Source: Escherichia coli
GTDB taxonomy: Bacteria; Pseudomonadota; Gammaproteobacteria; Enterobacterales; Enterobacteriaceae
Direction: 5' to 3' (one strand)
Assembly (NCBI RefSeq): GCF_009931435.1
Contig: NZ_CP043414.1
Length of the DNA stretch: 64,000 bases
Below are positions 31,511 to 54,349 of the stretch, piece after piece. A program made the position numbers and the translations under genes. Each line of letters begins with the position of its first letter. Positions within the stretch are counted from its first letter, which is position 1. The notes below the pieces were generated by a model. It was not told where the DNA came from. It did not search any database and worked only from the letters and a program-made list of their open reading frames with translations.

Positions 31511-32923
31511 ATGTCACTCAGTCGGCGTCAGTTCATTCAGGCATCGGGGATTGCACTTTGTGCAGGCGCTGTTCCCCTGAAGGCCAGCGCAGCCGGGCAA
31601 CAGCAACCGCTACCCGTTCCGCCGCTGCTTGAATCTCGCCGTGGGCAACCGCTGTTTATGACTGTACAACGTGCGCACTGGTCATTTACGCCAGGAACGC
31701 GCGCATCGGTCTGGGGAATCAATGGTCGTTACCTGGGGCCGACTATCCGCGTCTGGAAGGGCGATGATGTTAAGCTGATCTACAGTAACCGCCTGACAGA
31801 AAATGTCTCAATGACGGTGTCTGGTTTACAGGTGCCTGGCCCGCTGATGGGCGGTCCGGCACGGATGATGTCGCCAAACGCTGACTGGGCACCCGTATTA
31901 CCCATTCGCCAGAACGCAGCGACATTGTGGTATCACGCTAATACCCCCAATCGCACGGCTCAGCAGGTCTATAATGGCCTTGCCGGAATGTGGCTGGTGG
32001 AAGATGAAGTCAGCAAGTCGCTGCCTATCCCCAACCATTATGGTGTGGATGATTTTCCGGTCATTATCCAGGATAAACGGCTGGATAATTTTGGTACGCC
32101 AGAATACAACGAACCGGGAAGCGGCGGCTTTGTTGGAGATACGCTGCTGGTCAACGGTGTACAAAGCCCGTACGTTGAAGTCTCGCGTGGCTGGGTGCGC
32201 TTGCGTCTGTTGAACGCGTCGAACTCTCGTCGCTATCAACTACAGATGAGCGATGGTCGCCCGTTACATGTGATTTCTGGCGATCAGGGATTCTTGCCTG
32301 CTCCTGTATCGGTGAAGCAACTTTCGCTGGCACCGGGCGAGCGCCGCGAGATTCTGGTGGATATGAGCAACGGTGATGAAGTGTCGATCACCTGTGGCGA
32401 AGCGGCGAGCATTGTTGATCGTATTCGTGGCTTCTTTGAGCCATCCAGCATTCTGGTTTCTACGCTGGTGCTCACGTTGCGCCCGACCGGGCTACTGCCG
32501 CTGGTTACTGACAGCCTGCCGATGCGCCTGCTGCCAACTGAAATTATGGCCGGTTCGCCGATTCGCAGTCGCGATATCAGTCTGGGTGATGACCCGGGTA
32601 TCAATGGGCAGCTGTGGGACGTCAACCGTATTGATGTCACCGCGCAGCAAGGAACGTGGGAACGCTGGACGGTACGCGCGGACGAGCCGCAAGCGTTCCA
32701 TATTGAAGGCGTGATGTTCCAGATCCGTAACGTGAATGGCGCGATGCCGTTCCCGGAAGACAGAGGCTGGAAAGATACCGTTTGGGTTGACGGACAAGTG
32801 GAGCTGCTTGTTTATTTCGGTCAGCCTTCCTGGGCGCACTTCCCGTTCTACTTCAACAGTCAGACGCTGGAAATGGCGGACCGTGGCTCGATTGGGCAAT
32901 TGTTGGTCAATCCGGTACCGTAA
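31511..32923 (+). CDS. ftsP: Cell division protein FtsP (SufI), multicopper-oxidase fold
   Basis: ORF track 470 aa; Tat signal SRRQFIQASG. Confidence 0.9.
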   Translation: MSLSRRQFIQASGIALCAGAVPLKASAAGQQQPLPVPPLLESRRGQPLFMTVQRAHWSFTPGTRASVWGINGRYLGPTIRVWKGDDVKLIYSNRLTENVSMTVSGLQVPGPLMGGPARMMSPNADWAPVLPIRQNAATLWYHANTPNRTAQQVYNGLAGMWLVEDEVSKSLPIPNHYGVDDFPVIIQDKRLDNFGTPEYNEPGSGGFVGDTLLVNGVQSPYVEVSRGWVRLRLLNASNSRRYQLQMSDGRPLHVISGDQGFLPAPVSVKQLSLAPGERREILVDMSNGDEVSITCGEAASIVDRIRGFFEPSSILVSTLVLTLRPTGLLPLVTDSLPMRLLPTEIMAGSPIRSRDISLGDDPGINGQLWDVNRIDVTAQQGTWERWTVRADEPQAFHIEGVMFQIRNVNGAMPFPEDRGWKDTVWVDGQVELLVYFGQPSWAHFPFYFNSQTLEMADRGSIGQLLVNPVP

Positions 32924-33032: not shown

Positions 33033-35252
33033 ATGAGCTCTATCTCCCTGATCCAACCGGATCGCGACCTGTTCTCCTGGCCGCAGTACTGGGCCGCCTG
33101 TTTTGGACCGGCACCGTTTTTGCCGATGTCTCGTGAAGAGATGGATCAACTTGGCTGGGATAGCTGCGACATCATTTTGGTTACTGGCGACGCGTATGTC
33201 GATCACCCCAGCTTCGGGATGGCGATTTGCGGTCGTATGCTTGAAGCGCAGGGCTTTCGCGTCGGGATCATCGCCCAGCCAGACTGGAGCAGCAAAGACG
33301 ATTTCATGCGTCTGGGTAAACCGAATCTGTTTTTCGGTGTTACTGCTGGCAACATGGACTCGATGATCAACCGCTATACTGCCGATCGCCGTTTACGTCA
33401 TGACGATGCCTACACGCCGGATAACGTCGCGGGTAAGCGACCGGATCGCGCCACACTGGTTTATACCCAGCGTTGTAAAGAGGCGTGGAAAGATGTACCG
33501 GTAATCCTCGGCGGTATTGAGGCTAGTTTGCGTCGTACCGCGCATTATGATTACTGGTCTGATACCGTGCGCCGTTCCGTGCTGGTGGATTCCAAAGCCG
33601 ACATGCTGATGTTCGGTAACGGTGAGCGTCCGCTGGTGGAAGTGGCGCATCGTCTGGCGATGGGTGAGCCGATTAGTGAAATCCGCGATGTGCGTAATAC
33701 CGCGATTATCGTAAAAGAGGCGTTGCCAGGCTGGAGCGGTGTGGATTCCACCCGTCTTGATACTCCTGGGAAAATCGACCCGATCCCGCATCCGTATGGC
33801 GAAGATTTGCCGTGCGCGGATAACAAACCGGTGGCCCCGAAAAAGCAGGAAGCGAAAGCCGTAACCGTGCAGCCACCACGCCCGAAACCGTGGGAAAAAA
33901 CTTACGTATTGCTGCCTTCTTTCGAGAAAGTGAAGGGCGATAAAGTGCTGTACGCTCATGCTTCGCGTATTCTGCACCACGAAACCAACCCAGGCTGCGC
34001 GCGTGCGCTGATGCAAAAACATGGCGACCGCTATGTATGGATCAACCCGCCTGCCATCCCGCTTTCTACCGAAGAGATGGACAGCGTCTTTGCGCTGCCG
34101 TACAAGCGCGTACCGCATCCGGCTTACGGTAATGCCCGAATTCCGGCTTACGAAATGATCCGTTTCTCGGTCAACATTATGCGCGGCTGCTTTGGCGGCT
34201 GCTCTTTCTGTTCTATCACCGAGCACGAAGGGCGCATTATTCAGAGCCGTTCGGAAGATTCGATCATTAATGAGATCGAAGCGATCCGCGACACCGTTCC
34301 AGGTTTTACGGGCGTAATTTCCGATCTCGGTGGGCCAACTGCCAACATGTATATGTTGCGCTGCAAATCGCCACGCGCTGAGCAAACCTGCCGTCGTTTG
34401 TCGTGCGTTTATCCGGATATTTGTCCGCACATGGACACTAACCACGAACCGACGATCAACCTCTATCGCCGCGCGCGTGATCTGAAAGGCATTAAAAAGA
34501 TCCTCATCGCTTCCGGCGTGCGTTATGACATCGCCGTGGAAGATCCGCGCTATATCAAAGAGCTGGCGACCCATCACGTTGGCGGTTATCTGAAGATTGC
34601 CCCGGAACATACCGAAGAAGGGCCGTTGTCGAAGATGATGAAGCCGGGCATGGGCAGCTATGACCGCTTTAAAGAGCTGTTCGATACCTACTCGAAACAG
34701 GCAGGTAAAGAGCAGTATCTGATCCCGTATTTCATCTCTGCGCACCCCGGTACGCGTGATGAAGATATGGTGAATCTGGCGCTGTGGCTGAAAAAGCATC
34801 GCTTCCGTCTCGACCAGGTACAGAACTTCTACCCGTCGCCGTTGGCTAACTCCACCACCATGTATTACACCGGGAAAAACCCGCTGGCGAAGATTGGTTA
34901 CAAGAGTGAAGACGTCTTCGTACCGAAGGGCGACAAACAGCGTCGTTTGCATAAAGCGTTGTTGCGTTACCACGATCCGGCAAACTGGCCGTTAATCCGT
35001 CAGGCGCTGGAAGCGATGGGTAAAAAGCATCTGATTGGCAGCCGTCGTGATTGCTTAGTGCCTGCGCCAACCATTGAAGAGATGCGCGAAGCCCGCCGTC
35101 AGAACCGCAATACCCGTCCGGCGTTGACTAAACATACGCCGATGGCGACCCAGCGTCAGACACCTGCTACGGCAAAAAAAGCGTCGTCTACGCCATCTCG
35201 CCCGGTGAATGCTGGCGCGAAGAAACGCCCTAAAGCGGTGGCAGGTCGTTAA
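33033..35252 (+). CDS. ygiQ: Radical SAM protein YgiQ (UPF0313)
   Basis: ORF track 739 aa; cysteine motif CFGGCSFC. Confidence 0.85.
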
Positions 35253-35290
35253 GTGAAATGTGCCCGGCAGCAATGATGCTGCCGGGAAAT

Positions 35291-35521
35291 TTATAACCTT
35301 GGTTTATAAGGACTGTTACGAACGTCTAAGCGGTAATGCGCTCTTGCTGTTTCGTCTTTAACTTGCTGAATTTCCGGACGCAGGGCGTCAATATCCTGTT
35401 GCAGTTGATTAATTTTGTTATTCAATGCCTGAATATCATGTTCCAGGTGTTCAATTTTGGCATTGCTGGTACAGCCAGCAAGACACAGCGCCAGCGGAAT
35501 GGATAAGATAAGTTTGTTCAT
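35291..35521 (-). CDS. Lpp-like coiled-coil lipoprotein (second copy)
   Basis: Start at MNKLILSIPLALCLAGC (lipobox LAGC) then Lpp-like heptad region; begins 17 nt after yqhH stop. Confidence 0.55.
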   Translation of the reverse strand: MNKLILSIPLALCLAGCTSNAKIEHLEHDIQALNNKINQLQQDIDALRPEIQQVKDETARAHYRLDVRNSPYKPRL

Positions 35522-35538
35522 TATGAATTCCAGAACCG

Positions 35539-35796
35539 TCATTCCGCATACATACGCAAGCAGCGCAGGCAATCAAAATAGTCCTGAGCATCAAGACGCG
35601 TATTGGCTCTGTTAGCGTCGGATTTGGCAGCATAGATTTGTGGGCGTAATGCTTTCATATCCTGCTCAAGCCGGGCGATTTTGGCATTTAATGTTTGCAC
35701 ATTGCTCGCCAGCTGATTGACCTTTTGCTCATTGACGCAGCCACTGAGCAAGCAGGTTGCCAGAACAACAGCCCCCACGGTGAAAATCGTTTTCAT
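35539..35796 (-). CDS. yqhH: Lpp-like outer membrane lipoprotein YqhH
   Basis: ORF track 85 aa; [20 protein letters not shown] lipobox; Lpp-like coiled coil. Confidence 0.8.
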
Positions 35797-35846
35797 ATAG
35801 TGTTCCCTTTTATTTATTGTTCCGGCTAATTGTTATTTAATTCAGC

Positions 35847-36773
35847 TCATTGCTTTAATCTGGCGGCGGTTTTTGCCTCAATCTGCTTAAGTAGGCTGCC
35901 GCTATTCGGGCGGATAAAATCAGCGATTTCCCACTTACCTTCGCGCCGCTGTAAAACCAGTTCTTGCTCTTCATTGTTGCCATTGGTCAGCGTAAAACGA
36001 ACATGAATGCGGGCGGAATCGGCGGTTTTCTCCAGGACACGGATTTCATCAACGCGTGAAAATAGCGACTCTTCGCCAAAACAGATCGGATTGTCGTAAA
36101 TAAATTGCCGTTCTATTTGCATATCTTCATCGGGATTGTTGGCAGTCTTGAAGGTGGTTTTATAGAAGGCATTGACCGCCTGGCGGTAAGAGTCGGAAAC
36201 CACCCACGTCCACGGCCAGCTATAATCAGCAATATGTTCAAAGAGTTCGGCAACAAAGGCTTCCGGCTGTTCTTTTTGCAACGAAGCTATAGCGGCCAGC
36301 GTTTTTTCATTCTCGCTATTAACTGCTTGTAAGACGCTGCCATGATTGCTGACAATATCGTCAATGATCCAACGACCATTTTCCGCCACCATTTTCAGTG
36401 TCTGCGTGGTCTTTTCTTTATCGTCTTTAAAGATACGAAAGCGCACAACGGCATCGGCATGATCGGCGTCAGGTTGGGTTATCGCTACGCTTTCTAACAC
36501 CAGATCGCCAAAATCCTGACAATCACAAACCGGATCATAATCCAGCCAGCCAATATTGCCCGGTAGTGTAAGATTGTCGTTCAGGGTAAGCGCCTGTTGA
36601 ATACGCGCTGAAGTTATCGCCCGCTCTCCGGTTTCACCGAAATAAGGCGTACTGGCATCTGATTTATAGTTCTGATAAATCTGCCGGACTGTTTGTTCTA
36701 CGGTCTGTGAAGGAGGCTGCGCGTGTACGGTAAAACTTGCCAGGGCTGCTAAAAACAGAAGTATTATTTTCAT
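35847..36773 (-). CDS. yqhG: DUF3828 periplasmic protein YqhG
   Basis: ORF track 308 aa; signal peptide; synteny. Confidence 0.8.
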   Translation of the reverse strand: MKIILLFLAALASFTVHAQPPSQTVEQTVRQIYQNYKSDASTPYFGETGERAITSARIQQALTLNDNLTLPGNIGWLDYDPVCDCQDFGDLVLESVAITQPDADHADAVVRFRIFKDDKEKTTQTLKMVAENGRWIIDDIVSNHGSVLQAVNSENEKTLAAIASLQKEQPEAFVAELFEHIADYSWPWTWVVSDSYRQAVNAFYKTTFKTANNPDEDMQIERQFIYDNPICFGEESLFSRVDEIRVLEKTADSARIHVRFTLTNGNNEEQELVLQRREGKWEIADFIRPNSGSLLKQIEAKTAARLKQ

Positions 36774-36972
36774 CTGTTTTTCACCTCTCCGTTGCGTTTA
36801 TCCCGGGTGTAGATGAGTTGTTCCTTTAAGAGCTTCCGGCTCTGCATGATGATGTCCTTATATTTGGCATTCCTGAACAAGGAAGAGTAACAATGGGCAG
36901 GACGCGAGGGGAATAAATGATTTCTGAAAAGTCCGGTAGCGGAACATTACCGCCACCGGGAGAATTTGCACG

Positions 36973-37800
36973 TTAGCCGCCAAACTGGTCAGGATCGGGG
37001 CCGAGGCGTTTGCCCTGGTCGAGTTTGGCAATTTCACCTAGCTCGTCTTTGTCGAGACGGAAATCCCAGACATCAAAGTTTTCGGCAATACGTGAAGGTG
37101 TGACCGATTTCGGGATCACCACCAGGCCGCTATCCAGATGCCAGCGGATAACAATCTGCGCCGGGGTTTTGCCGTATTTATCTGCCAGATCGCGAATGAC
37201 TTTCTGATCGAAAACGCCTTTCCCTCCTTGCGCTAATGGGCTCCAGGATTCGGTCTGGATTTTGTGTGTCGCGTTCCAGGCGTGAAGCTGGCGTTGCTGC
37301 ATCAGCGGGTGGAGTTCAATCTGGTTTATCACCGGCGTCACGCCAGTTTCATCAATCAGGCGTTGCAAGTGATGGATCTGGAAGTTGCACACGCCGATGC
37401 TTTTGATTAAGCCCTCTTTTTGCAATTCGATCATGCCCTTCCATGCTTCGACATAATGGTCGATAGCAGGAACGGGCCAGTGCATTAAGTAAAGGTCGAC
37501 ATAATCAAGCTGGAGTTTTTTCAGGCTGTCGAGCAGGGCTTCGCGGGGGCGCTTGTGGTCGTCGTTCCACAGTTTAGTGGTGATGAACAGTTCTTCTCTG
37601 TTGACTGAGGCATTTTTCAGGGCTTTGCCGACACCTTCTTCGTTCTTATAGGCCGCGGCGGTATCAATCGAGCGATAACCCACGTCTAACGCTTTTTGAA
37701 TGGCGGTGATTACTTCCTCATTACTTGCTTGCCAGACGCCCAGTCCCAACTGGGGCATGACATTGCCATCCTGTAGCTTAATAACGGTTGGATTAGCCAT
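36973..37800 (-). CDS. dkgA: 2,5-diketo-D-gluconate/methylglyoxal reductase A (aldo-keto reductase)
   Basis: ORF track 275 aa; AKR family sequence. Confidence 0.9.
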   Translation of the reverse strand: MANPTVIKLQDGNVMPQLGLGVWQASNEEVITAIQKALDVGYRSIDTAAAYKNEEGVGKALKNASVNREELFITTKLWNDDHKRPREALLDSLKKLQLDYVDLYLMHWPVPAIDHYVEAWKGMIELQKEGLIKSIGVCNFQIHHLQRLIDETGVTPVINQIELHPLMQQRQLHAWNATHKIQTESWSPLAQGGKGVFDQKVIRDLADKYGKTPAQIVIRWHLDSGLVVIPKSVTPSRIAENFDVWDFRLDKDELGEIAKLDQGKRLGPDPDQFGG

Positions 37801-37904
37801 ACGTTCCTCCTTTATATGAACTCACCGGAGCAGGCTCCGGTGAGGTGTTGTGAACTTAAGTCTGGACGAAATGCCCGAAAACGAAAGTTTGAGGCGTAAA
37901 AAGC

Positions 37905-39068
37905 TTAGCGGGCGGCTTCGTATATGCGGCGGCTGACATCCAGCGTAATGTCATGATTTTCGCCCAGTTGGGTCATGCCGTGTTCTTCCAGTTTTTTCAG
38001 CAATGCCGGGATGGAGCTGCCGTCCAGACCGTAGTCGGAGAGGTGGGTCGGCACGCCTAATTGCTCAAAGAAATTGCGGGTTGCGGCAATCGCGGCGTCA
38101 ATACGCTCATCGTCAGAACCTTCTGTGATGTTCCAGACGCGTTCAGCATATTGCAGCAGTTTAGCGCGTTTAGTGTCGCGTTTTTCATTCCACAGTGCAG
38201 GCAGGACGATAGCCAGTGTTTGCGCGTGATCCAGACCGTGCATCGCAGTCAGTTCGTGGCCTAGCATATGCGTTGCCCAGTCCTGCGGTACGCCAGCGCC
38301 GATCAAACCATTCAGCGCCTGAGTCGCCGCCCACATAACGTTGGCGCGTACATCGTAGTTTTCTGGCTCTTTCAGGGCTTTTGGACCATCTTCGATCAGC
38401 GTCAGCAAAATGCCTTCTGCGAAACGGTCCTGAATTTTGGCATCAACCGGTTTGGTAACATACTGTTCCACGGTGTGCACAAAGGCATCCACTACACCGT
38501 TAGCCACCTGACGCGGCGGCAGAGTGTAGGTATAAACCGGATCGAGCACGGCAAATACCGGCTGAACATGGGCAGAATGGAACGCCTGCTTGTCGCCTGT
38601 GGTTTTACGGGAGATGACCGCACCTGCGTTGGATTCTGAACCGGTCGCTGGCAGCGTCAGCACACAGCCCATCGGGATAGCGCTTTTAATCTCTTTACCG
38701 CCCGTTTGTAGAATGCGCCACGGATCGATATTTTCTGGATAGTTAGCCGCCGCAGCGATAAATTTGGTGCCGTCCAGTACAGAACCGCCGCCAACCGCCA
38801 GCAGGAAGGTTACTTTCTGTTCGCGAACCAGTTTCACGGCATTCATCAGCGTTTCATAAGCCGGGTTTGGCTCAATACCGCCAAATTCCAGCACGTCCAT
38901 GCCTTTCAGGGCATCCAGAACTTGATCGAGAACGCCGGTTTTTTTCACGCTGCCGCCGCCGTAGGTAATCAATACGCGAGCATCGTGAGGAATTTGTTCG
39001 CGTAAACCAGCGATTGCGCCTTTACCAAAAAGAATGCGGGTTGGGGTGTGCAGATTAAAGTTGTTCAT
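37905..39068 (-). CDS. yqhD: NADPH-dependent aldehyde reductase YqhD (Fe-ADH family), 387 aa
   Basis: ORF track frame; start at [17 protein letters not shown]. Confidence 0.9.
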
Positions 39069-39204
39069 TACTTGCTCCCTTTGCTGGGTCAATATGAGGG
39101 CAGAGATCGGTCTGCCTGATATTTTTCATTGTGGTCGCCAGCGCCGTACCTCTCAATGCTCATTTCTGCCAATGTCTTGCCTATTTCTCCAGAGTGCTGG
39201 AGAA

Positions 39205-40161
39205 ATGCGACAAAATTGCGCACAATCAAATTGCCGCATTATTCCTAAGAAATTACGCGATATGAAACGTGAAGAGATTTGCCGCTTGCTAGCGGGTAAA
39301 GTTAATAAACTGAAAAATAAAGAAAATAGTTTATCAGAGCTATTGCCCGATGTGCGTTTGTTGTATGGCGAGACGCCTTTCGCACGTACGCCGGTGATGT
39401 ACGAGCCTGGCATCATAATTCTCTTTTCTGGGCATAAAATCGGTTATATCAATGAACGCGTGTTTCGTTATGATGCCAATGAATATCTGCTGCTGACGGT
39501 GCCGTTGCCGTTTGAGTGCGAAACTTATGCCACGTCAGAGGTACCGCTGGCAGGGTTGCGTCTCAATGTCGATGTTTTGCAGTTACAAGAGCTGTTGATG
39601 GACATTGGCGAAGATGAGCATTTTCGTCCGTCGATGGCAGCCAGCGGGATTAACTCTGCCACGTTATCAGAAGAGATTTTATGTGCGGCGGAGCGGTTAC
39701 TCGACGTGATGGAGCGACCGCTGGATGCGCGTATTCTCGGCAAACAGATCATCCGCGAAATTCTGTACTACGTGCTGACCGGACCTTGCGGTGGCGCGTT
39801 ACTGGCGCTGGTCAGCCGTCAGACCCACTTCAGCCTGATTAGTCGTGTGCTGAAACGAATTGAGAATAAATACACCGAAAACCTGAGCGTCGAGCAACTG
39901 GCGGCAGAAGCCAACATGAGCGTATCGGCGTTCCACCATAATTTTAAGTCTGTCACTAGCACCTCGCCGTTGCAGTATTTGAAGAATTACCGTCTGCATA
40001 AGGCGCGGATGATGATTATCCACGACGGCATGAAGGCCAGTGCAGCAGCGATGCGCGTCGGCTACGAAAGCGCGTCGCAATTTAGCCGTGAGTTTAAACG
40101 TTACTTTGGTGTGACACCGGGGGAGGATGCGGCAAGAATGCGGGCGATGCAGGGGAGTTAA
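39205..40161 (+). CDS. yqhC: AraC-family transcriptional activator YqhC, 318 aa
   Basis: ORF track frame; start chosen at [10 protein letters not shown] to match length; divergent from yqhD; C-terminal AraC HTH. Confidence 0.8.
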
Positions 40162-40200
40162 ATGCGTTCCCGGTACCGCAACCGGGAACGGGGGAAATTG

Positions 40201-40860
40201 TCAGGCGTTACAGTATTTCTTTTTAATCACCACAAACAGCGTGCCTAACAAGCCTGCAGTTAACAAGGCAATCGGCAGGATCATCAGGAACGTCATTACC
40301 TGATCTTCATGGCGTTTAACGAACGGAATCATACTTAAGGCATAGCCGAAACTGGTTACCACGCTGACCCACAGCAATCCGCTTAACCAGTTGAAAAACT
40401 GGAAGCGGCGGTTTGGCAGACCGGAAATTCCCGCCATGGTTGGCAGCAACGTACGGACAAATGCAAGAAAACGTCCAGCCAGCAGCGCCAGCAGACCGTG
40501 GCGGTCAAACATGCAGGTGGCGCGCTGGTGATATTTAGCGGGAAGCTGTGCCAGCCAGCCTTTCACCGTTTTGGTATTCCCTAACCAGCGCCCCTGAATA
40601 TAACTTAACCAGCAGCCCAAACTTGCTGCGGCGGTCAGAATCGCAATCGTTGGCAGAAAATCCATAACCCCCTGGGCAATCAATGCGCCTGCCAGTATCA
40701 ACAAGCTGTCGCCTGGCAAAAATGAGGCGGGCAGCAGGCCGTTTTCTAAAAACAGCGTGGCAAACATGACAAAGTAAACAACGCTAACAATATGAGGATC
40801 CGCCAGCGCGGCAAAGTCGTGTTGCCAGAGCGCAGCGATGATATCTTGAATAACAGCCAT
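40201..40860 (-). CDS. yghB: DedA-family inner membrane protein YghB
   Basis: ORF track 219 aa; polytopic membrane protein. Confidence 0.85.
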
Positions 40861-40998
40861 GGACTTTCCTGTGGAACAGCGTTTAAGCCTTTATCTGCCT
40901 ATTGTACTCCTGAATCACCCGGGACGCCTTGATCCCGGACGCAACAATTTAAGACTTTTCACAATTAAATGTCTGCAAATTTGTCCAAACTGGCAACA

Positions 40999-42186
40999 TT
41001 ACACAATTCGCGTAAAACCGGCGTCCAGATCGGCAATCAAATCATCGACATCTTCCAGACCAATATGCAGGCGAATCAAGGTCCCGCTAAAATCGATCTC
41101 GCCTTGTGGGCGAATGGCGGCGATATGTTCCGGTTGATTTGCCAGGATCAACGATTCATACCCGCCCCACGAATAGGCCATGCTGAATAAACTGAAGTTA
41201 TCCAGATAGTTCGCCAGCTCTTCATCATTGAGTTTTTTCTTAAGCACAAAGGAAAATAGCCCGCTGCTGCCTGTAAAGTCTCGTTTCCAGAATTCGTAGC
41301 CTTTACTGCCAGGCAGAGCAGGGTGGTTAACTCGCGCTACTTGCGGATGCTCTGCCAGCCATTCAGCCACTTTCAGACTGCTTTCATGATGTTGACGCAG
41401 GCGAACACCCAAAGTGCGTAGGCCACGGCTGGTTATATAGGCGGTATCGGCATCGACCATCTGCCCCATCAGATAGGCATTCTCCCGCAGCTGCTCCCAG
41501 CAACGGGCATTGCATACGGCAGTACCAATCATCGCATCTGAATGCCCCACCAGATATTTGGTGGCTGCCTGAATGGAAACATCGATGCCAAAATCCAGCG
41601 CCTTAAACAGCACACCGGCCGCCCAGGTGTTATCGATCATAATGATGGCATCTGGCACCACACTGCGCACGGCGGCAACAATCGCCGGAACGTCGTGGAC
41701 TTCCATGGTGATGGAGCCTGGCGATTCCAGAAACACGATTTTAGTGTTTGGCTGCACATGTTTAACGATATCTGCGCCAATCAGCGGATCAAACCACGAT
41801 GTCGTTACGCCCAGTTTGCTGAGGATTTTGCTACAGAAATCCTGACTCGGTTCATAGGCGGTGTTGGTCATCAACACATGATCGCCCTGTTCGACAAAAG
41901 CAAGAATGGAATTAGCAACCGCTGCTGCTCCGCAGGGGAACAGCACGCAGCCTGCGCCACCTTCCAGTTCGCACATCGCTTCTTGTAAGGAGAAATGGGT
42001 TAACGTTCCACGCCGTCCATAAAACAACTCGCCATTGGCGCGATTGCGTGTCGCGTGTTTTTTGGCTTCCACACTGTCAAAGACCAGCGAAGACGCGCGC
42101 TGAATCACGCTATTTACCGCGCCGAGAGTGTATTTTTTGCTGCGTCCTGCGTTCACCAGTTGAGTATCAAGCTTTTTGTCCGCCAT
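40999..42186 (-). CDS. metC: Cystathionine beta-lyase MetC, 395 aa
   Basis: ORF track frame; start at [18 protein letters not shown]-dependent enzyme. Confidence 0.9.
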
Positions 42187-42204
42187 GTCGGGATTCCTGT
42201 TTTT

Positions 42205-42228
42205 ATACGTCTGGATGTCTAAACTAGC
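42205..42228 (-). promoter_or_regulatory. Candidate tandem MetJ boxes upstream of metC
   Basis: atacgtct-ggatgtct-aaactagc, tandem 8-mers resembling the met-box AGACGTCT. Confidence 0.45.
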
Positions 42229-42350
42229 ATGAATATTCGCGGGCGCATCCTGAAGAATTAGCATAAAGCAGAAAATTTTCGCAAATGGCGTGCTGGTGAC
42301 TTTTTTACTGCGTAAACGCAAGGAAAAGAAAGCAAAGGTACGGCAGTATG

Positions 42351-42379
42351 CAAATAGTAATGAGAACGACTATCAATTC
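42351..42379 (+). promoter_or_regulatory. Candidate Fur box in exbB promoter
   Basis: caaatagtaatgagaacgactatcaattc, Fur-box-like AT-rich dyad upstream of exbB. Confidence 0.45.
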
Positions 42380-42437
42380 GACGTCGTTTTGATATTATTA
42401 TGCGCAGATTTTGTGACTTGCGTCCTGGAGATACACA

Positions 42438-43172
42438 GTGGGTAATAATTTAATGCAGACGGACCTTTCCGTCTGGGGTATGTATCAGCACGCCGATATT
42501 GTCGTTAAGTGCGTGATGATTGGGCTTATTTTGGCCTCCGTAGTCACTTGGGCAATCTTCTTCAGTAAGAGCGTTGAGTTCTTCAATCAGAAGCGTCGCC
42601 TGAAACGCGAACAGCAACTGCTGGCCCAAGCGCGTTCCTTGAACCAGGCCAACGATATCGCCGCTGATTTTGGTAGCAAAAGCTTAAGCCTGCATTTGCT
42701 CAATGAAGCGCAGGATGAGCTGGAACTGTCAGAAGGCAGCGACGATAACGAAGGTATTAAAGAACGTACCAGCTTCCGTCTGGAGCGTCGGGTCGCCGCC
42801 GTGGGGCGTCAAATGGGCCGCGGTAACGGCTACCTTGCAACCATCGGCGCGATTTCGCCGTTTGTGGGCCTCTTTGGTACGGTCTGGGGCATCATGAACA
42901 GCTTTATCGGTATTGCGCAAACGCAGACCACTAATCTGGCTGTCGTTGCGCCGGGTATCGCAGAAGCTCTGTTAGCAACGGCAATCGGCCTCGTGGCAGC
43001 GATTCCGGCGGTCGTTATCTATAACGTATTTGCACGTCAGATTGGCGGCTTTAAAGCGATGCTGGGTGATGTCGCAGCGCAGGTATTATTGCTGCAAAGT
43101 CGTGACCTGGATCTGGAAGCCAGCGCCGCTGCGCATCCGGTTCGTGTCGCCCAAAAATTACGCGCAGGATAA
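42438..43172 (+). CDS. exbB: TonB-system energiser ExbB
   Basis: ORF track 244 aa; MotA/TolQ/ExbB family. Confidence 0.9.
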   Translation: MGNNLMQTDLSVWGMYQHADIVVKCVMIGLILASVVTWAIFFSKSVEFFNQKRRLKREQQLLAQARSLNQANDIAADFGSKSLSLHLLNEAQDELELSEGSDDNEGIKERTSFRLERRVAAVGRQMGRGNGYLATIGAISPFVGLFGTVWGIMNSFIGIAQTQTTNLAVVAPGIAEALLATAIGLVAAIPAVVIYNVFARQIGGFKAMLGDVAAQVLLLQSRDLDLEASAAAHPVRVAQKLRAG

Positions 43173-43178
43173 TGTCCG

Positions 43179-43604
43179 ATGGCAATGCATCTTAACGAAA
43201 ACCTCGACGATAACGGCGAAATGCATGATATCAACGTGACGCCGTTTATCGACGTGATGTTGGTTCTGCTGATTATCTTTATGGTGGCAGCGCCGTTAGC
43301 GACGGTAGATGTGAAGGTGAACTTGCCTGCTTCTACCAGCACGCCGCAGCCTCGTCCGGAAAAACCGGTTTATCTGTCGGTGAAGGCGGACAACTCGATG
43401 TTTATCGGTAACGATCCGGTCACCGATGAAACAATGGTTACAGCGCTGAATGCGTTAACCGAAGGTAAGAAAGATACCACTATCTTCTTCCGTGCGGATA
43501 AAACTGTCGATTACGAGACGTTGATGAAGGTAATGGATACGCTGCATCAGGCGGGTTACCTGAAGATAGGTCTGGTCGGCGAAGAAACAGCCAAAGCGAA
43601 GTAA
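43179..43604 (+). CDS. exbD: TonB-system protein ExbD
   Basis: ORF track 141 aa; follows exbB. Confidence 0.9.
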   Translation: MAMHLNENLDDNGEMHDINVTPFIDVMLVLLIIFMVAAPLATVDVKVNLPASTSTPQPRPEKPVYLSVKADNSMFIGNDPVTDETMVTALNALTEGKKDTTIFFRADKTVDYETLMKVMDTLHQAGYLKIGLVGEETAKAK

Positions 43605-43611
43605 AGAGAAT

Positions 43612-43712
43612 TGCCTGATGCGCTACGCTTATCAGGCCTACAAAATCTATCGCAAGGTATTGAATTTGCATGAATTTGTAGGCCGGATAAGGCGTTCACG
43701 CCGCATCCGGCA
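43612..43712. repeat. REP/BIME palindromic units downstream of exbD
   Basis: gcctgatgcgctacgcttatcaggcctac and tgtaggccggataaggcgttcacgccgcatccggca, typical REP sequences. Confidence 0.75.
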
Positions 43713-43729
43713 AGAGTTATAAAGTACGA

Positions 43730-43766
43730 TGATGCCCGGTTGCTTTTCACAACCGGGCATTTTTTT
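43730..43766. terminator. Hairpin plus T-run between convergent exbD and yghA
   Basis: gcccggttgcttttcacaaccgggc followed by attttttt. Confidence 0.65.
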
Positions 43767-44649
43767 AGCCTAAATGCTCGCCGCCGCACACGCCGTGCAC
43801 TTCTGCGGTGACATAGCTCGACTCCTGACTTGCCAGATAAACATACACTGGGGCCAGCTCCGCCGGTTGTCCTGCACGTTTCATTGGTGTTTGCTGTCCA
43901 AACTGCGGGATCTTATCCTGCGTCTGTCCACCGGAAATTTGCAGTGCCGTCCAGATAGGGCCTGGTGCGACAATGTTCACTCGAATGCCTTTTTCTGCAA
44001 CCTGTTTTGCCAGGCCACGGCTGTAGTTCAGAATCGCCGCCTTCGTAGCCGCATAGTCCAGCAAATGTGGGCTTGGCTGGTACGCCTGGATTGACGAAGT
44101 GGTGATGATACTGGCACCTTTCGGTAGCAGGGGGATCGCTTCCTGGGTTAGCCAGAACAGCGCGAAAACGTTAATGGCAAAGGTCTTTTGAAACTGTTCG
44201 CTGGTGAGGTCTGCAATATCAGGAATGGCAACCTGTTTCCCGGCGACCAGCGCCATAATATCCAGCCCGCCTAACGCCTTGTGCGCTTCGTGAACCAGCG
44301 AACGGGCGAATTTCTCATCGCTTAAATCGCCTGGCAGCAGGACGGCTTTGCGTCCGCATTCTTCAATGATCTTTTTCACATCCTGAGCGTCTTCTTCTTC
44401 CACGGGAAGATAACTGATCGCTACGTCAGCGCCTTCACGCGCGTAAGCGATGGCGGCAGCACGACCGATTCCGGAATCGCCCCCTGTCACCAGTGCTTTA
44501 CGATCTTTCAGGCGACCGCTACCAACATAGGTTTTCTCGCCGCAATCCGGCACCGGTGTCATTTTCGCCTGGATGCCTGGCGTCGGTTGTTTCTGTTTGG
44601 GATATTCACCAGTGTAATACTGCGTGGTCGGGTCTTTTAAATGAGATAT
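43765..44649 (-). CDS. yghA: Short-chain dehydrogenase/reductase YghA (conserved N-terminal extension lacks ATG)
   Basis: ORF track 43765..44562 (265 aa, TGGDSGIG Rossmann motif); in-frame upstream 29 codons encode [29 protein letters not shown], with ATA where an ATG start is expected (44647..44649). Confidence 0.8.
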
Positions 44650-44770
44650 TGTTTTTCTCCCTTCAGGTTCAACGTCCTTTAAGGGTAGACGCTCTCGATG
44701 CGTTGATAAGGGAACCAGGAAGATCCCTAAACCTCGGATTTATGCGACAAAGGTTTAACGGATATGTTGA

Positions 44771-45334
<564 letters not shown>

Positions 45335-45341
45335 TCTGATT

Positions 45342-45361
45342 CGGGCGCGGTTCTCGCGCCC
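45342..45361. terminator. Bidirectional hairpin between convergent yqhA and gpr
   Basis: gggcgcggttctcgcgccc inverted repeat. Confidence 0.55.
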
Positions 45362-45373
45362 GTTATTAACAGG

Positions 45374-46414
45374 TCATTTATCGGAAGACGCCTGCCACAG
45401 ATTCAGCTCGCCATCGGCGATATGCTGATCAATCTGCGCCAGCTCCTCGGTGCTAAATGTCAGATTATTCAGCGCCTGGACATTCTCTTCCAGTTGCTCT
45501 GCACGGCTGGCACCGATCAATACCGACGTCACTCGCTCATCTTTCAGCAACCAGCTTAACGCCATTTGTGCCATTGATTGTCCACGCTGCTGTGCCATTT
45601 CATTCAATAACCGCAGGCTGTTGAGGTTGGCTTCGGTGAGCATTTTCGGCGTCAGACCACGAACTTTATTCCCTTCACGATGCATCCGTGAATCTTGCGG
45701 AATACCGTTGAGATATTTTCCGGTCAGCAATCCCTGAGCCAGAGGAGTAAAGGCAATGCAGCCCACGCCGTTATGTTGCAGGGTATCCAGCAGGCCGCTT
45801 TTATCCACCCAGCGGTTCAGCAAATTGTACGAAGGTTGATGAATTAACAGCGGAATTTTCCACTCGCGCAGCAACTCGACCATTTTTTGCGTCCGCTCTG
45901 GCGAGTAAGAGGAGATCCCGACATAAAGCGCCTTACCGCTTTGTACCGCATGAGCCAGCGCAGAGGCGGTTTCTTCCATCGGCGTATTTTCATCGACGCG
46001 ATGAGAGTAAAAGATATCGACATACTCAAGCCCCATCCGCTTCAGGCTTTGGTCGAGGCTGGCGAGCAGGTATTTACGTGAGCCGCCAGAGCCGTACGGG
46101 CCGGGCCACATATCGTATCCGGCTTTGGTAGAGATAATCAGTTCATCGCGATAAGCGGCAAAATCCTCCCGCAGCAGGCGACCAAAGTTCTCTTCTGCGC
46201 TTCCTGGAGGCGGCCCGTAATTGTTGGCTAAATCAAAGTGCGTAATGCCCAAATCAAACGCTTTGCGCAGGATCGCACGCTGTGATTCCAGTGCGTTAAC
46301 GTGACCGAAATTGTGCCATAAACCGAGCGATAACGCGGGCAGGCGTAAACCGCTTTTTCCGCAATAGCGGTATTGCATCTGCCCGTAACGTTCGGGATTC
46401 GCTAACCAGACCAT
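45374..46414 (-). CDS. gpr: L-glyceraldehyde 3-phosphate reductase (aldo-keto reductase), 346 aa
   Basis: ORF track frame; start at MVWLANPERYGQMQYRYCGKSGL. Confidence 0.9.
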   Translation of the reverse strand: MVWLANPERYGQMQYRYCGKSGLRLPALSLGLWHNFGHVNALESQRAILRKAFDLGITHFDLANNYGPPPGSAEENFGRLLREDFAAYRDELIISTKAGYDMWPGPYGSGGSRKYLLASLDQSLKRMGLEYVDIFYSHRVDENTPMEETASALAHAVQSGKALYVGISSYSPERTQKMVELLREWKIPLLIHQPSYNLLNRWVDKSGLLDTLQHNGVGCIAFTPLAQGLLTGKYLNGIPQDSRMHREGNKVRGLTPKMLTEANLNSLRLLNEMAQQRGQSMAQMALSWLLKDERVTSVLIGASRAEQLEENVQALNNLTFSTEELAQIDQHIADGELNLWQASSDK

Positions 46415-46567
46415 GACCTCTCCTTTCCACCATTCAATTTCGAAACAATGTTTCCAGTTTAGCGATTTACCAGGGGGGATCCCGTAGCATCGCTCACAGT
46501 GTGACGAAAAACTGGGCAAAAACACGTGCTTATGCTTTGCTTAAAAAAACACCAATTGAGGAGTGCA

Positions 46568-47458
46568 ATGATGCCGCGTCTGACCGCTAAAGATTTCCCA
46601 CAAGAGTTGCTGGATTACTACGACTATTACGCTCACGGGAAAATTTCGAAACGTGAGTTCCTCAACCTTGCGGCGAAGTATGCGGTGGGCGGGATGACGG
46701 CATTAGCGTTGTTTGATTTGCTCAAGCCAAATTATGCGCTGGCGACTCAGGTAGAGTTTACCGACCCGGAAATTGTTGCTGAGTACATCACGTATTCTTC
46801 GCCAAATGGTCACGGCGAGGTACGGGGTTATCTGGTGAAGCCCGCAAAGATGAGCGGCAAAACGCCAGCCGTGGTGGTGGTGCATGAGAATCGTGGACTG
46901 AATCCGTATATCGAAGATGTGGCACGGCGAGTAGCGAAGGCGGGGTATATCGCCCTGGCACCTGACGGCTTAAGTTCCGTTGGAGGTTATCCGGGTAATG
47001 ATGATAAAGGTCGTGAGCTGCAACAGCAGGTTGATCCAACCAAACTGATGAATGATTTCTTTGCCGCAATTGAGTTTATGCAACGCTATCCGCAAGCGAC
47101 AGGCAAAGTGGGTATTACCGGATTTTGCTATGGCGGTGGTGTATCGAACGCGGCGGCTGTCGCGTATCCGGAAATGGCCTGCGCGGTGCCGTTTTATGGT
47201 CGTCAGGCACCCACTGCCGATGTGGCGAAGATTGAAGCGCCTTTACTGCTCCACTACGCGGAACTGGATACCCGAATCAACGAGGGCTGGCCCGCTTACG
47301 AGGCGGCGTTGAAAGCCAATAATAAGGTCTATGAGGCGTATATCTATCCGGGGGTTAATCACGGATTCCATAATGATTCCACGCCCCGTTATGACAAATC
47401 TGCCGCCGATCTTGCCTGGCAAAGGACGCTGAAATGGTTCGATAAATATCTCTCCTGA
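46568..47458 (+). CDS. yghX: Dienelactone hydrolase-family protein YghX (intact)
   Basis: ORF track frame; start at ATG 46568 (MMPRLTAKDF) with SD gagga; uninterrupted 296 aa. Confidence 0.7.
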   Translation: MMPRLTAKDFPQELLDYYDYYAHGKISKREFLNLAAKYAVGGMTALALFDLLKPNYALATQVEFTDPEIVAEYITYSSPNGHGEVRGYLVKPAKMSGKTPAVVVVHENRGLNPYIEDVARRVAKAGYIALAPDGLSSVGGYPGNDDKGRELQQQVDPTKLMNDFFAAIEFMQRYPQATGKVGITGFCYGGGVSNAAAVAYPEMACAVPFYGRQAPTADVAKIEAPLLLHYAELDTRINEGWPAYEAALKANNKVYEAYIYPGVNHGFHNDSTPRYDKSAADLAWQRTLKWFDKYLS

Positions 47459-47576
47459 TAGGTTTATCTCTTACGGGATTACGTCTTAAACAAGCATGAA
47501 AAAATAGCGTGCGCAAAAGTCGTTCTTTGCCTAAAATATCGCTATATATGACAATATATAGCGAATGAGGTGAACG

Positions 47577-47864
47577 ATGAATAACCATTTTGGTAAAGGC
47601 TTAATGGCGGGATTAAAAGCAACGCATGCCGACAGTGCGGTTAATGTGACAAAATACTGTGCCGATTATAAACGCGGTTTTGTATTAGGCTACTCACACC
47701 GGATGTACGAAAAGACCGGAGATCGCCAGCTTAGCGCCTGGGAAGCGGGGATTCTGACGCGCCGCTATGGACTGGATAAAGAGATGGTAATGGATTTCTT
47801 TCGTGAGAATAATTCCTGTTCTACGTTGCGCTTTTTTATGGCCGGTTATCGCCTCGAAAATTGA
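47577..47864 (+). CDS. yghW: DUF2623 protein YghW
   Basis: ORF track 95 aa; position upstream of the hyb operon. Confidence 0.75.
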
Positions 47865-48052
47865 TCAAACATACGTATTATCTTGCTTTAATTAATTACA
47901 CTAATGCTTATTCCCTTCGTTTTAGTGCCCCGCCGCAGTATCATGATATCGATAACCATAATAAATGTGTGGTAAATGGCGCATCGATCGCATTATTGAT
48001 TTTGCGATTGAGGCAAAATATATGCCAGATCTTCGCAACGGAATAACTATAA

Positions 48053-49171
48053 ATGACTGGAGATAACACCCTCATCCATTCTCACGGCATTAACCGTCGT
48101 GATTTCATGAAGCTTTGTGCAGCATTAGCCGCCACCATGGGGTTAAGTAGCAAAGCCGCTGCAGAAATGGCCGAATCGGTTACTAACCCGCAGCGTCCGC
48201 CAGTTATCTGGATTGGCGCGCAGGAGTGCACCGGTTGTACGGAATCTCTGCTTCGTGCAACGCATCCAACGGTAGAAAACCTCGTGCTGGAGACTATCTC
48301 TCTCGAGTATCACGAAGTGCTTTCCGCCGCCTTCGGTCATCAGGTCGAAGAGAACAAACATAACGCTCTCGAGAAGTACAAAGGGCAGTATGTGTTAGTG
48401 GTGGATGGTTCCATCCCATTAAAAGATAACGGTATTTATTGCATGGTTGCCGGTGAGCCGATTGTGGATCACATCCGCAAAGCGGCGGAAGGCGCAGCAG
48501 CCATTATCGCTATCGGTTCCTGCTCTGCGTGGGGCGGTGTTGCCGCAGCTGGAGTTAACCCAACTGGCGCTGTCAGCCTGCAAGAAGTTCTGCCGGGCAA
48601 AACCGTTATCAACATTCCGGGCTGCCCACCGAACCCGCACAACTTCCTCGCGACCGTTGCGCACATCATCACTTACGGCAAACCGCCGAAACTGGATGAC
48701 AAAAACCGTCCGACTTTCGCCTATGGCCGTCTGATTCACGAACACTGCGAACGCCGCCCGCACTTCGATGCTGGTCGTTTTGCCAAAGAGTTCGGTGATG
48801 AAGGCCACCGCGAAGGCTGGTGCCTGTACCACCTCGGCTGTAAAGGGCCAGAAACTTACGGCAACTGCTCAACGCTGCAATTCTGCGATGTTGGTGGTGT
48901 GTGGCCGGTGGCGATTGGTCACCCGTGCTATGGCTGTAACGAAGAAGGTATCGGCTTCCATAAAGGCATCCATCAGCTTGCCAACGTCGAAAACCAGACT
49001 CCGCGTTCGCAGAAACCGGATGTTAACGCTAAAGAGGGCGGCAACGTCTCTGCGGGCGCTATCGGTTTGCTCGGCGGTGTGGTTGGGCTGGTTGCCGGTG
49101 TCAGCGTGATGGCGGTGCGTGAACTGGGTCGTCAGCAAAAGAAAGATAACGCTGACTCACGGGGAGAATAA
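48053..49171 (+). CDS. hybO: Hydrogenase 2 small subunit
   Basis: ORF track 372 aa; Tat signal RRDFMK; [NiFe] hydrogenase small-subunit cysteine clusters. Confidence 0.95.
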
Positions 49172-49173
49172 CC

Positions 49174-50160
49174 GTGAACAGACGTAATTTTATTAAAGCA
49201 GCCTCCTGCGGGGCATTGCTGACGGGCGCGTTGCCGTCTGTCAGTCATGCGGCTGCTGAAAACCGCCCGCCAATTCCGGGATCGCTGGGGATGTTGTACG
49301 ACTCGACGCTGTGCGTAGGCTGCCAGGCTTGCGTCACTAAGTGTCAGGATATCAACTTCCCTGAACGTAACCCACAAGGGGAACAGACCTGGTCGAACAA
49401 CGACAAACTGTCGCCGTACACCAATAACATCATTCAGGTGTGGACCAGCGGCACGGGAGTCAACAAAGACCAGGAAGAGAACGGCTATGCGTACATTAAG
49501 AAACAGTGTATGCACTGCGTCGATCCGAACTGTGTCTCAGTGTGCCCGGTTTCTGCGCTGAAAAAAGATCCGAAAACCGGCATTGTCCATTACGACAAAG
49601 ATGTGTGCACCGGCTGCCGTTACTGCATGGTTGCCTGTCCGTACAACGTGCCGAAGTACGACTACAACAACCCGTTTGGTGCGCTGCATAAGTGTGAGCT
49701 TTGCAACCAGAAAGGTGTGGAACGTCTCGATAAAGGCGGTCTGCCTGGCTGCGTAGAAGTGTGCCCGGCGGGCGCGGTGATTTTTGGTACGCGTGAAGAG
49801 CTGATGGCGGAGGCGAAAAAACGTCTGGCGCTGAAGCCTGGCAGCGAATACCACTATCCGCGTCAGACGCTGAAATCTGGCGACACTTACCTGCATACGG
49901 TGCCGAAATATTATCCGCATCTGTACGGCGAGAAAGAGGGCGGCGGTACTCAGGTACTGGTACTGACGGGTGTGCCTTATGAAAATCTCGACCTGCCGAA
50001 ACTGGACGATCTTTCTACTGGTGCGCGTTCCGAACATGTTCAACACACCCTGTATAAAGGCATGATGCTACCACTGGCTGTGCTGGCGGGCTTAACCGTG
50101 CTGGTTCGTCGCAACACCAAAAACGACCATCACGACGGAGGAGACGATCATGAGTCATGA
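49174..50160 (+). CDS. hybA: Hydrogenase 2 4Fe-4S ferredoxin-type component
   Basis: ORF track 328 aa; multiple CxxCxxC motifs; Tat-like signal. Confidence 0.9.
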
Positions 50161-54003: not shown

Positions 54004-54337
54004 GTTGTCGCTTTGCCAGAGCGCCGTTGAAATTATCCAACGGCAGGCGGAGCAGCATGATGTTAAGCGCGTCACCGCCGTGTGGCTGGAAATTGGCGCG
54101 CTCTCCTGCGTTGAGGAGAGCGCCGTCCGTTTTAGTTTTGAAATTGTCTGCCACGGAACGGTGGCGCAAGGGTGCGATTTACATATCGTCTATAAACCCG
54201 CCCAGGCCTGGTGCTGGGATTGCAGCCAGGTGGTGGAGATTCATCAGCACGATGCGCAATGCCCGCTCTGTCATGGCGAGCGGTTGCGTGTCGATACCGG
54301 CGATTCGCTGATCGTCAAAAGTATTGAAGTTGAATAA
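53996..54337 (+). CDS. hybF: Hydrogenase nickel incorporation protein (HypA paralogue), 113 aa
   Basis: Start at MHELSLCQSAVEII; CxxC ... CPLC zinc motif. Confidence 0.85.
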   Translation: MHELSLCQSAVEIIQRQAEQHDVKRVTAVWLEIGALSCVEESAVRFSFEIVCHGTVAQGCDLHIVYKPAQAWCWDCSQVVEIHQHDAQCPLCHGERLRVDTGDSLIVKSIEVE

Positions 54338-54349
54338 CCGGAGTTAACA

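Follow-up and report, generated by a model that had tools for sequence, protein, structure and literature searches.

What does the short open reading frame beside yqhH encode, and is it a working gene? Lpp is the most abundant protein of Escherichia coli and sets the width of the periplasm, the stiffness of the outer membrane and the release of vesicles. Its minor paralogues, where they cannot be cross-linked, might act as modulators of the Lpp tether, a role proposed for LppB of Salmonella and suggested for YqhH. In the window analyzed here, a stretch of 64,000 nucleotides of E. coli DNA (assembly GCF_009931435.1, contig NZ_CP043414.1), the Lpp-like gene yqhH is followed by a second reading frame of the same kind, which we refer to as ORF2.

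Organization of the yqhH-ORF2 locus

The two reading frames lie one behind the other on the minus strand, and the 17-nt gap after the yqhH stop codon that the initial annotation had reported is read directly from the window sequence. The length of about 77 aa given there for ORF2 was about right, the exact value being 76 aa. Otherwise all elements of that observation hold, and its interpretation is borne out in part. The locus comprises the following features:

33033-35252, plus strand: ygiQ, a radical SAM protein of 739 aa, converging on ORF2
35263-35286, either strand: GC-rich hairpin with a 10-bp stem (CCCGGCAGCA/TGCTGCCGGG), fold of -21.5 kcal/mol, z = -6.7
35291-35521, minus strand: ORF2, 76 aa, ATG at 35521, TAA stop, RefSeq WP_001037461.1
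35522-35538, minus strand: 17-nt spacer between yqhH and ORF2 (CGGTTCTGGAATTCATA), with only a weak GGA(A) Shine-Dalgarno (SD)-like element
35539-35796, minus strand: yqhH, 85 aa, ATG start, annotated in RefSeq, NCBIfam NF007428 'lipoprotein YqhH'
35847-36773, minus strand: yqhG, 308 aa, two DUF3828 domains (Pfam DUF3828, E = 5e-45)

The genes yqhG, yqhH and ORF2 thus share one strand, with a gap of 50 nt between yqhG and yqhH and of 17 nt between the yqhH stop and the ORF2 ATG. A second in-frame ATG at 35542, upstream of the ORF2 start and overlapping the yqhH stop codon (ATGA), would give an 83-aa form, which is used in some databases and by some gene callers. The start of the 76-aa form is the one kept in the orthologues.

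The hairpin has a perfect stem and sits between the stop codons of ORF2 and ygiQ. It is likely a bidirectional terminator for the converging ORF2 and ygiQ transcripts, and it was left unflagged in a simple terminator scan because its U-tract is weak.

ORF2 and YqhH are Lpp-family lipoproteins without a terminal lysine

Both proteins fit the lipobox pattern [LVI][ASTVI][GAS]C, with LSGC at 35737-35748 in YqhH and LAGC at 35471-35482 in ORF2, as read from the sequence; the lipoboxes of the orthologues are LSGC and LASC. The signal peptide of YqhH spans residues 1-19, its lipobox (...LLSGC) ending with Cys20, and that of ORF2 spans residues 1-16 (MNK + LILSIPLALC + LAGC), followed by Cys17 and leaving a mature part of 60 aa. 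The description of both products as a lipobox followed by an Lpp-like coiled coil is borne out by the Pfam LPP family (PF04728, gathering score 29.1 bits), which YqhH matches with 46.2 bits (E = 6e-12) and ORF2 with 42.1 bits (E = 1e-10). The C-termini, ...RMYAE in YqhH and ...YKPRL in ORF2, can be read directly, and the lysine used for attachment to peptidoglycan is, as had been noted, present in neither; the canonical Lpp-family members in our HMMER search and alignment end in Y[RKH]K. The tail of YqhH holds two cysteines, and that of ORF2 (NSPYKPRL) is free of cysteine.

ORF2 is distinct from its neighbor. With the NCBIfam equivalog for YqhH (NF007428, cutoff 120), YqhH scored 196.9 bits and ORF2 53.8 bits, so that ORF2 is not a YqhH, and both fell below the cutoff of 108 for the 'major outer membrane lipoprotein' (NF011925), with 71.4 bits for ORF2 and 84.1 bits for YqhH. 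ORF2 and YqhH were 42% identical over 64 residues in BLASTP (E = 3e-17), well past what a chance match would give. The mature ORF2 has 47% identity with Lpp and 38% with YqhH, YqhH and Lpp being 47% identical, and a phmmer comparison with the Lpp structure in the PDB aligned ORF2 without gaps from Cys1 to residue 57 (E = 3e-13). A motif L-R-P-(E/Q)-I, with the proline at heptad position f, is common to ORF2 and YqhH and absent in Lpp. The idea of a local duplication, implied by calling the two genes a tandem pair of paralogues, does not survive these comparisons: with an identity of only 38-42% to each other and each of them equally near to Lpp, the duplication is ancient and not a recent tandem event.

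Whether reference genomes list the second reading frame, a point left for checking in the initial annotation, is answered by RefSeq, where it appears as an 'LPP leucine zipper domain-containing protein' (WP_001037461.1). A literature search under this annotation name found no publication. ORF2 is an Lpp-family lipoprotein gene, ordinary in kind, that is already annotated generically.

Within Escherichia, ORF2 is confined to cryptic clade I

Low-stringency DNA similarity identified ORF2 in 18 of the 5,426 complete E. coli genomes, intact and annotated in every case. It was absent, even at low stringency, from K-12 and from 5,408 complete E. coli genomes (99.7%). In these, the yqhH stop is followed directly by the hairpin, which corresponds to a clean indel made up of the 17-nt spacer and the ORF2 coding sequence. 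The gene yqhH itself is present in virtually all of the 5,426 genomes and also in the E. albertii and Escherichia sp. E1V33 loci examined. The exact ORF2 protein occurred on about 900 contigs of a protein collection and close variants on hundreds more, all of them Escherichia.

The same 18 carriers were the 18 best matches to the window in the 3' half of ygiQ (97.0-98.1% identity versus at most 96.3% for all other E. coli) and again over 20 kb at window positions 38000-58000 (98.0-98.5% versus at most 97.0%). A sporadic distribution of ORF2 within E. coli, as an accessory gene, is thereby rejected, all carriers forming one lineage, cryptic clade I, which carries Stx and ETEC toxins. The lineage is identified by strain 2013C-4282, one of the 18 carriers and a completely sequenced cryptic clade I genome (PMC10100065). 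Since the carriers are also the best matches to the flanks of the window, the window itself comes from clade I or very near to it.

Among the species-representative genomes, ORF2 was not found either with a single-sequence query or with a subsequent profile-based scan. The latter returned only paralogues of another class, described below as class A, in E. albertii and Escherichia sp. E1V33; a match in Coriobacteriaceae was judged spurious. ORF2 is confined to cryptic clade I among the Escherichia genomes searched and is, in these genomes, a simple marker for the clade within the genus.

A variable array of Lpp-like genes adjoins ygiQ

A word-indexed protein search for relatives of ORF2 gave 3 matches, and an exhaustive HMMER search gave 60. 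Beside ygiQ, the Lpp-like proteins fall into three classes:

YqhH class: tail containing cysteine
ORF2 class: 76 aa, tail NSP(Y/F)xPRL
Class A: 82-83 aa, longer W/F-rich tail ending in PPR(L/Y/W)

They are combined next to ygiQ as follows:

Window (clade I): yqhG - yqhH - ORF2
E. coli K-12: yqhG - yqhH
Escherichia sp. E1V33: yqhG - A - yqhH
E. albertii: yqhG - (two extra ORFs) - A - yqhH
Many Salmonella enterica strains: A - ORF2, with different upstream genes
Enterobacterium L003: ORF2 alone, between a CarboxypepD_reg lipoprotein gene and ygiQ

Going by database names, class A also occurs in E. ruysiae and E. whittamii. In K-12, E. albertii, E1V33, Salmonella, L003 and the window alike, a homologous hairpin by the ygiQ stop immediately follows the last Lpp-like gene, and ygiQ is the constant anchor adjoining ORF2-class genes in every lineage examined. 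The S. enterica orthologue of ORF2 (locus L012) was found on more than 1000 contigs in the same position by the hairpin and ygiQ; the orthologues in S. enterica and L003 each share 71% protein identity and 78-79% DNA identity with ORF2. The C-terminal ...PRL or ...PPR[LYW] is kept across the ORF2-class and class-A proteins of Escherichia, Salmonella and metagenomic relatives, the tails being otherwise divergent. Three classes of non-tethering Lpp-like proteins make up the variable array beside ygiQ, which is newly recognized here.

Sequence conservation of ORF2

The dN/dS ratio of ORF2 was 0.23 in comparison with Salmonella (dS 0.72) and 0.20 in comparison with L003 (dS 0.81); for the adjacent yqhH it was 0.07-0.25. 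Lipobox, heptad core and C-terminal PRL are kept from one genus to the next. The five clade I alleles compared (that of the window and those of four further strains) differed in ORF2 only at codons 12, 13 and 15 of the signal peptide, and the 17-nt spacer was identical in all five. Damaged copies were also seen: the orthologue of one Salmonella strain is frameshifted by a 1-nt deletion and truncated to 64 aa, and the copy P0011 on one E. coli contig has the lipobox cysteine replaced by glycine. The possibility, raised in the initial annotation, that ORF2 is a decaying duplicate with frameshifts in relatives finds little room in these comparisons, with 18 of 18 copies intact, a dN/dS of 0.20-0.23 and one frameshifted Salmonella copy. 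We interpret ORF2 as being under purifying selection where it is present, but as evolutionarily dispensable rather than essential.

The zero diversity of the mature ORF2 next to a variable yqhH could be taken for a selective sweep. This was rejected in favor of the simpler explanation that the flanks recombine with alleles of E. coli sensu stricto; the diversity of mature ORF2 is low because E. coli sensu stricto has no ORF2 counterpart to recombine with. A constraint at the RNA level in the central 42 nt of ORF2 was likewise discarded, the enrichment of identical codons not being significant (Fisher p = 0.16), and an Rfam search gave nothing credible there (a Chloroflexus-1 match of 23 bits against a gathering score of 181).

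Expression of ORF2

No hairpin was seen between yqhG and the end of ORF2, the first one coming after ORF2, so that ORF2 is most simply the third gene of a yqhG-yqhH-ORF2 operon. The transcription unit would then end with ORF2, at the hairpin common with ygiQ. A candidate internal terminator at 35581-35597 was dismissed as a weak match within chance expectation (5 found, 2.5 expected), and a consensus scan of positions 35000-37200 returned no sigma-70-like promoter. In K-12, yqhGH has been treated as one unit with a promoter activated by BglJ-RcsB (PMC3950696), and a MALDI study reported YqhH only following peroxide or chlorine stress (PMC6115441).

The best duplex of ORF2 with the anti-SD sequence reaches -3.6 kcal/mol and is badly placed, in agreement with the earlier remark that the second reading frame has no clear SD sequence. 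The corresponding values are -5.3 kcal/mol for yqhH, -5.4 for the Salmonella orthologue and -11.6 for that of L003. Translation of ORF2 probably depends largely on ribosomes finishing yqhH, given its weak SD sequence and a start only 17 nt past the yqhH stop, and a translational coupling of the two genes, as suggested in the initial annotation, is plausible. Expression of ORF2 may be low, its SD sequence being weaker than those of its orthologues and the K-12 operon being a target of the H-NS-antagonizing BglJ-RcsB.

Predicted structure and role of the ORF2 protein

The AlphaFold2 (AF2) monomer of ORF2 is a single helix of residues 7-68 with a pLDDT of 97-98 in its core, followed by a tail without secondary structure (pLDDT 66). 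The heptad register is that of Lpp, with I7, I14, I21, I28, I35, T42, L49 and Y56 at the a positions and L10, L17, L24, L31, V38, A45 and R52 at the d positions, and the a/d core is hydrophobic or alanine-like at every position up to residue 49. The g-e' pairs D27-R32 and (D/E)34-K39 are kept between Lpp and ORF2, and no repulsive g-e' pair was present however Lpp, YqhH and ORF2 were combined, with themselves or with each other. A Foldseek search of the monomer against the PDB gave no match, a single long helix being unsuited to such a search. Pro33 lies within the helix and could disturb an Lpp-like packing at its middle.

In E. coli, lipoproteins without Asp at position +2 are sorted to the outer membrane. 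ORF2 has Thr and YqhH has Val at this position, and the +2 rule predicts the outer membrane as the destination of both. The mature ORF2 is most likely a parallel coiled coil of Lpp length, probably a trimer, that would hang from the outer membrane towards the peptidoglycan. Its tail ends in Y-K-P-R-L and not in Y-R-K, so a lysine-dependent attachment to peptidoglycan is not expected; lacking the C-terminal lysine for L,D-transpeptidases, ORF2 would be an Lpp-like protein that always stays 'free'. By itself, or as part of mixed trimers with YqhH or Lpp, it would provide non-tethering subunits and thereby lower or tune the coupling between outer membrane and peptidoglycan, in a manner comparable to LppB.

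Alternative explanations for ORF2

Taken as a whole, the explanation that we consider probable is that ORF2 is a genuine and selectively maintained third Lpp-family gene beside lpp and yqhH, restricted to clade I within Escherichia, cotranscribed with yqhG-yqhH and encoding a free coiled coil anchored in the outer membrane. It might instead be a dispensable relic of an old array of paralogues, still intact but without relevance for function, poorly translated and nearing loss. The weak SD sequence, the absence of the gene from most Escherichia, the frameshifted Salmonella copy and the Cys-to-Gly exchange in the lipobox on one E. coli contig are what a relic would show, but a dN/dS of about 0.2 over a dS of about 0.75, the intact state of the gene on thousands of contigs and in every one of the 18 complete genomes of clade I, and the conservation of lipobox, heptad core and C-terminal PRL across genera make this quite unlikely. 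As regards its origin, we regard ORF2 as probably old and lost, or never fixed, in most Escherichia lineages. The competing view, that clade I acquired it recently as a horizontally transferred cassette and did not inherit it from the Escherichia-Salmonella ancestor, has a real but lesser chance of being right. The same ORF2-less junction (GAATGA-TAAAAA-hairpin) is found in E. albertii, E1V33 and E. coli sensu stricto, so that on the accepted tree the absence of the gene looks ancestral for Escherichia; ORF2 has a GC content of 42% versus 51% for the window, and its mature coding part is without nucleotide diversity in clade I, where yqhH differs at 5-17 sites. Low diversity, however, is expected of a gene without a homologue in E. 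coli sensu stricto, and the flanks are of Escherichia type, with yqhH 98% identical to K-12 and the 3' end of ygiQ 93% identical to K-12 but only 80% to Salmonella, values that also exclude a foreign import of this end of ygiQ together with ORF2. Furthermore, the dS of 0.72-0.81 is roughly that of a vertically inherited gene (for ygiQ, the window and Salmonella are separated by a dS of 1.15), all carriers have ORF2 at exactly the same place with respect to the hairpin and ygiQ, and no mobile-element features were seen flanking ORF2. The ORF2-less junction and the AT-richness would fit either a re-acquisition by clade I or an ancient polymorphism that was retained.

The question of how the protein acts admits other answers than that of a free, passive coiled coil. 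YqhH and ORF2, as co-expressed paralogues, might join in a dedicated heterotrimer, and this one specific mixed coiled coil would then be what functions in the cell. Co-assembly would be favored by the adjacency and the probable translational coupling of the genes, the two proteins have in common the LRP(E/Q)I motif with its proline at f that Lpp does not have, and there are 4 attractive g-e' contacts from ORF2 to YqhH compared with 2 for ORF2 with itself. In the reverse direction, from YqhH to ORF2, only 1 attractive pair is formed, however, and nothing points to negative design against homotrimers. ORF2 is missing beside YqhH in E. albertii, E1V33 and 99.7% of E. coli, YqhH is missing beside the ORF2-class genes of Salmonella and L003, and the partners are swapped by lineage (A + YqhH, A + ORF2, YqhH + ORF2). 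With pairings of the classes that vary by lineage, and with no second class next to YqhH in most E. coli, an obligate complex of YqhH and ORF2 is unlikely, and we give little credence to the heterotrimer as the functional unit; judging from the heptad core and the g-e' charge pairs, ORF2, YqhH and Lpp could nevertheless mix. ORF2 might also act through a C-terminal module of its own, the conserved P-R-L (compare PPR[LYW] of class A) docking a periplasmic partner or binding peptidoglycan non-covalently, so that the protein would be a tether or sensor and not a passive 'free Lpp'. The conservation of the PRL and PPR[LYW] ends over the ORF2 class and class A in spite of divergent tails speaks for such a module, but this is a sequence pattern alone, in a tail that the AF2 model leaves unstructured at a pLDDT of 66, and we think it improbable.

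Significance of the ygiQ-proximal array

As a third, lineage-restricted member of the Lpp family, ORF2 shows the yqhH locus to be a variable array of paralogues. What is modestly new is its restriction to clade I within Escherichia, together with the variable three-class set by ygiQ. The natural genotypes, with none, one or two extra paralogues and three types of tail, are suited to testing the modulation of the tether. The practical value of ORF2 is modest, and the known picture of Lpp biology is unchanged.

A bolder reading, which we consider highly speculative and very unlikely to hold in full, is that the interval is a swap-shop of non-tethering Lpp paralogues with alternative C-terminal modules (a Cys pair, NSPYxPRL, or a W/F-rich PPR[LYW]). 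The lineages of Escherichia and Salmonella would mix these, controlled by envelope stress through Rcs/BglJ, either to set the coupling between outer membrane and wall or as docking sites for various partners in the periplasm, and ORF2 would be the clade I-specific member. If this were true, the presence of ORF2 would set clade I, an emerging lineage of pathogens, apart in its envelope or vesiculation phenotype.

Comparison with known lipoproteins

Of the known proteins, E. coli Lpp (PDB 1EQ7) shares with ORF2 the LAGC lipobox followed by S/T-S-N-A-K-I, a mature part of similar length (58 aa versus 60 aa in ORF2) that aligns without gaps at 47% identity, the a/d core and the match to PF04728. 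ORF2 differs from it in ending in Y-K-P-R-L instead of Y-R-K, and thus in having no C-terminal lysine for attachment by LdtA/B/C, in carrying Pro33 where Lpp has Ser, and in lying at another locus, within an operon whose expression is presumably weak compared with the high expression of lpp. With YqhH, ORF2 has in common the presumed operon, the family, the length class, the LRP motif and the lack of a terminal lysine. The two proteins are only 38-42% identical, the tail of YqhH contains cysteine whereas NSPYKPRL does not, and YqhH is near-universal in the complete E. coli genomes searched while ORF2 is restricted to one lineage.

The closest relative is a 76-aa 'LPP leucine zipper domain-containing protein' of Salmonella enterica (P0106), which has the same length as ORF2, 71% identity to it and an NSP(F/Y)xPRL tail. 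It lies by the ygiQ hairpin as the second gene of a tandem Lpp-like pair, which makes it a member of the true orthologue class. Its upstream partner, however, is a class-A paralogue (P0052, 82-83 aa, tail ...HPPRL) and not YqhH, the genes further upstream encode an amidohydrolase and a CxxC protein, and its SD sequence is better.

The comparison that bears most on function is that with Salmonella LppB, which stands in tandem with LppA and is, like ORF2, a minor Lpp paralogue next to a member of its family. LppB forms heterotrimers with Lpp and lowers the cross-linking of Lpp to peptidoglycan, and the same modulation has been proposed for YqhH (bioRxiv 10.1101/2025.11.13.688167). In contrast to ORF2, LppB keeps Lys58, is inefficiently cross-linked and acts via a C-terminal Cys disulfide, neither residue being present in ORF2; it is encoded at the lpp locus and not beside ygiQ, and it has been studied by experiment, while ORF2 is known from its sequence. 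By analogy, LppB would, among the known systems, best show how a paralogue with poor or no tethering could act, and ORF2 appears to fit this model, proposed also for YqhH, at least as well.

Lineage and local divergence

The lineage of the window is the divergent, cryptic Escherichia clade I. No complete E. coli genome reached at least 99% identity to the window at either 33900-35255 (the 3' half of ygiQ) or 38000-58000, the highest values being 98.1% and 98.5%, respectively. Across 1,689 complete E. coli genomes, the ygiQ segment (33900-35255) showed just 90-95% identity, and the polymorphism of this gene within E. coli is unusually high.

Among clade I strains, the mature coding part of ORF2, the gene for the 76-aa Lpp-like lipoprotein, showed no nucleotide differences (window 35291-35521 compared with four other strains, L014-L017), whereas the adjoining yqhH (35539-35796) differed from the same strains at 5-17 nucleotides, mostly synonymously. 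The YqhH protein of several clade I strains is exactly that of K-12 (WP_000848528.1). This contrast in diversity probably arose because the flanks have recombined with E. coli sensu stricto.

Two further features were found in the window:

32400-32549, local divergence spike inside ftsP
37839-37902, minus strand, match to the ES173 sRNA (Rfam, 99 bits against a gathering score of 90, E = 1.5e-20)

The spike carries 13 mismatches in 150 nt relative to K-12 and 12 in 150 relative to a clade I strain, compared with 0-5 in the flanking bins, and looks like a small recombination patch. The sRNA match lies just past the start of dkgA (36973-37800), toward yqhD.

Lpp-like genes in related loci

In a Salmonella strain (Logan SRR31391959; locus L013), the ORF2 orthologue is damaged: a 1-nt deletion (GCAG-AAAAG) cuts it to 64 aa. 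The adjacent class-A gene, which encodes the third Lpp-like protein class beside ygiQ, is intact. The features of this and two other loci, from E. albertii (L006) and Salmonella enterica (L012), are:

L013:3001-3195, truncated ORF2 orthologue
L006:2132-2815, CPIC-motif protein gene, a short way upstream of the class-A gene
L012:2049-2861, CPIC-motif protein gene, a short way upstream of the class-A gene
L006:3228-3476, class-A gene with atypical lipobox context

The two CPIC-motif proteins are about 230-270 aa long, carry the motif CPIC...C(Q/D)VC at the N-terminus and share 39% identity (E = 3e-62); neither matched any Pfam or NCBIfam entry. In E. albertii, this gene and a 137-aa ORF are inserted between yqhG and the class-A gene. 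The lipobox region of the E. albertii class-A protein reads …LILCVAC-SPSS, which is atypical: the class-A proteins of Escherichia sp. E1V33 and Salmonella have LTGC and LSGC.

The head of the presumed operon

The presumed operon containing the Lpp-like genes is headed by yqhG:

35847-36773, minus strand, yqhG

Its product comprises two DUF3828 domains and is named 'YqhG/Tai3 family' in newer PGAP annotations, which relates it to a family of type VI amidase-immunity proteins. The first place of yqhG in an operon of Lpp-like genes could point to a peptidoglycan-related role for the protein.
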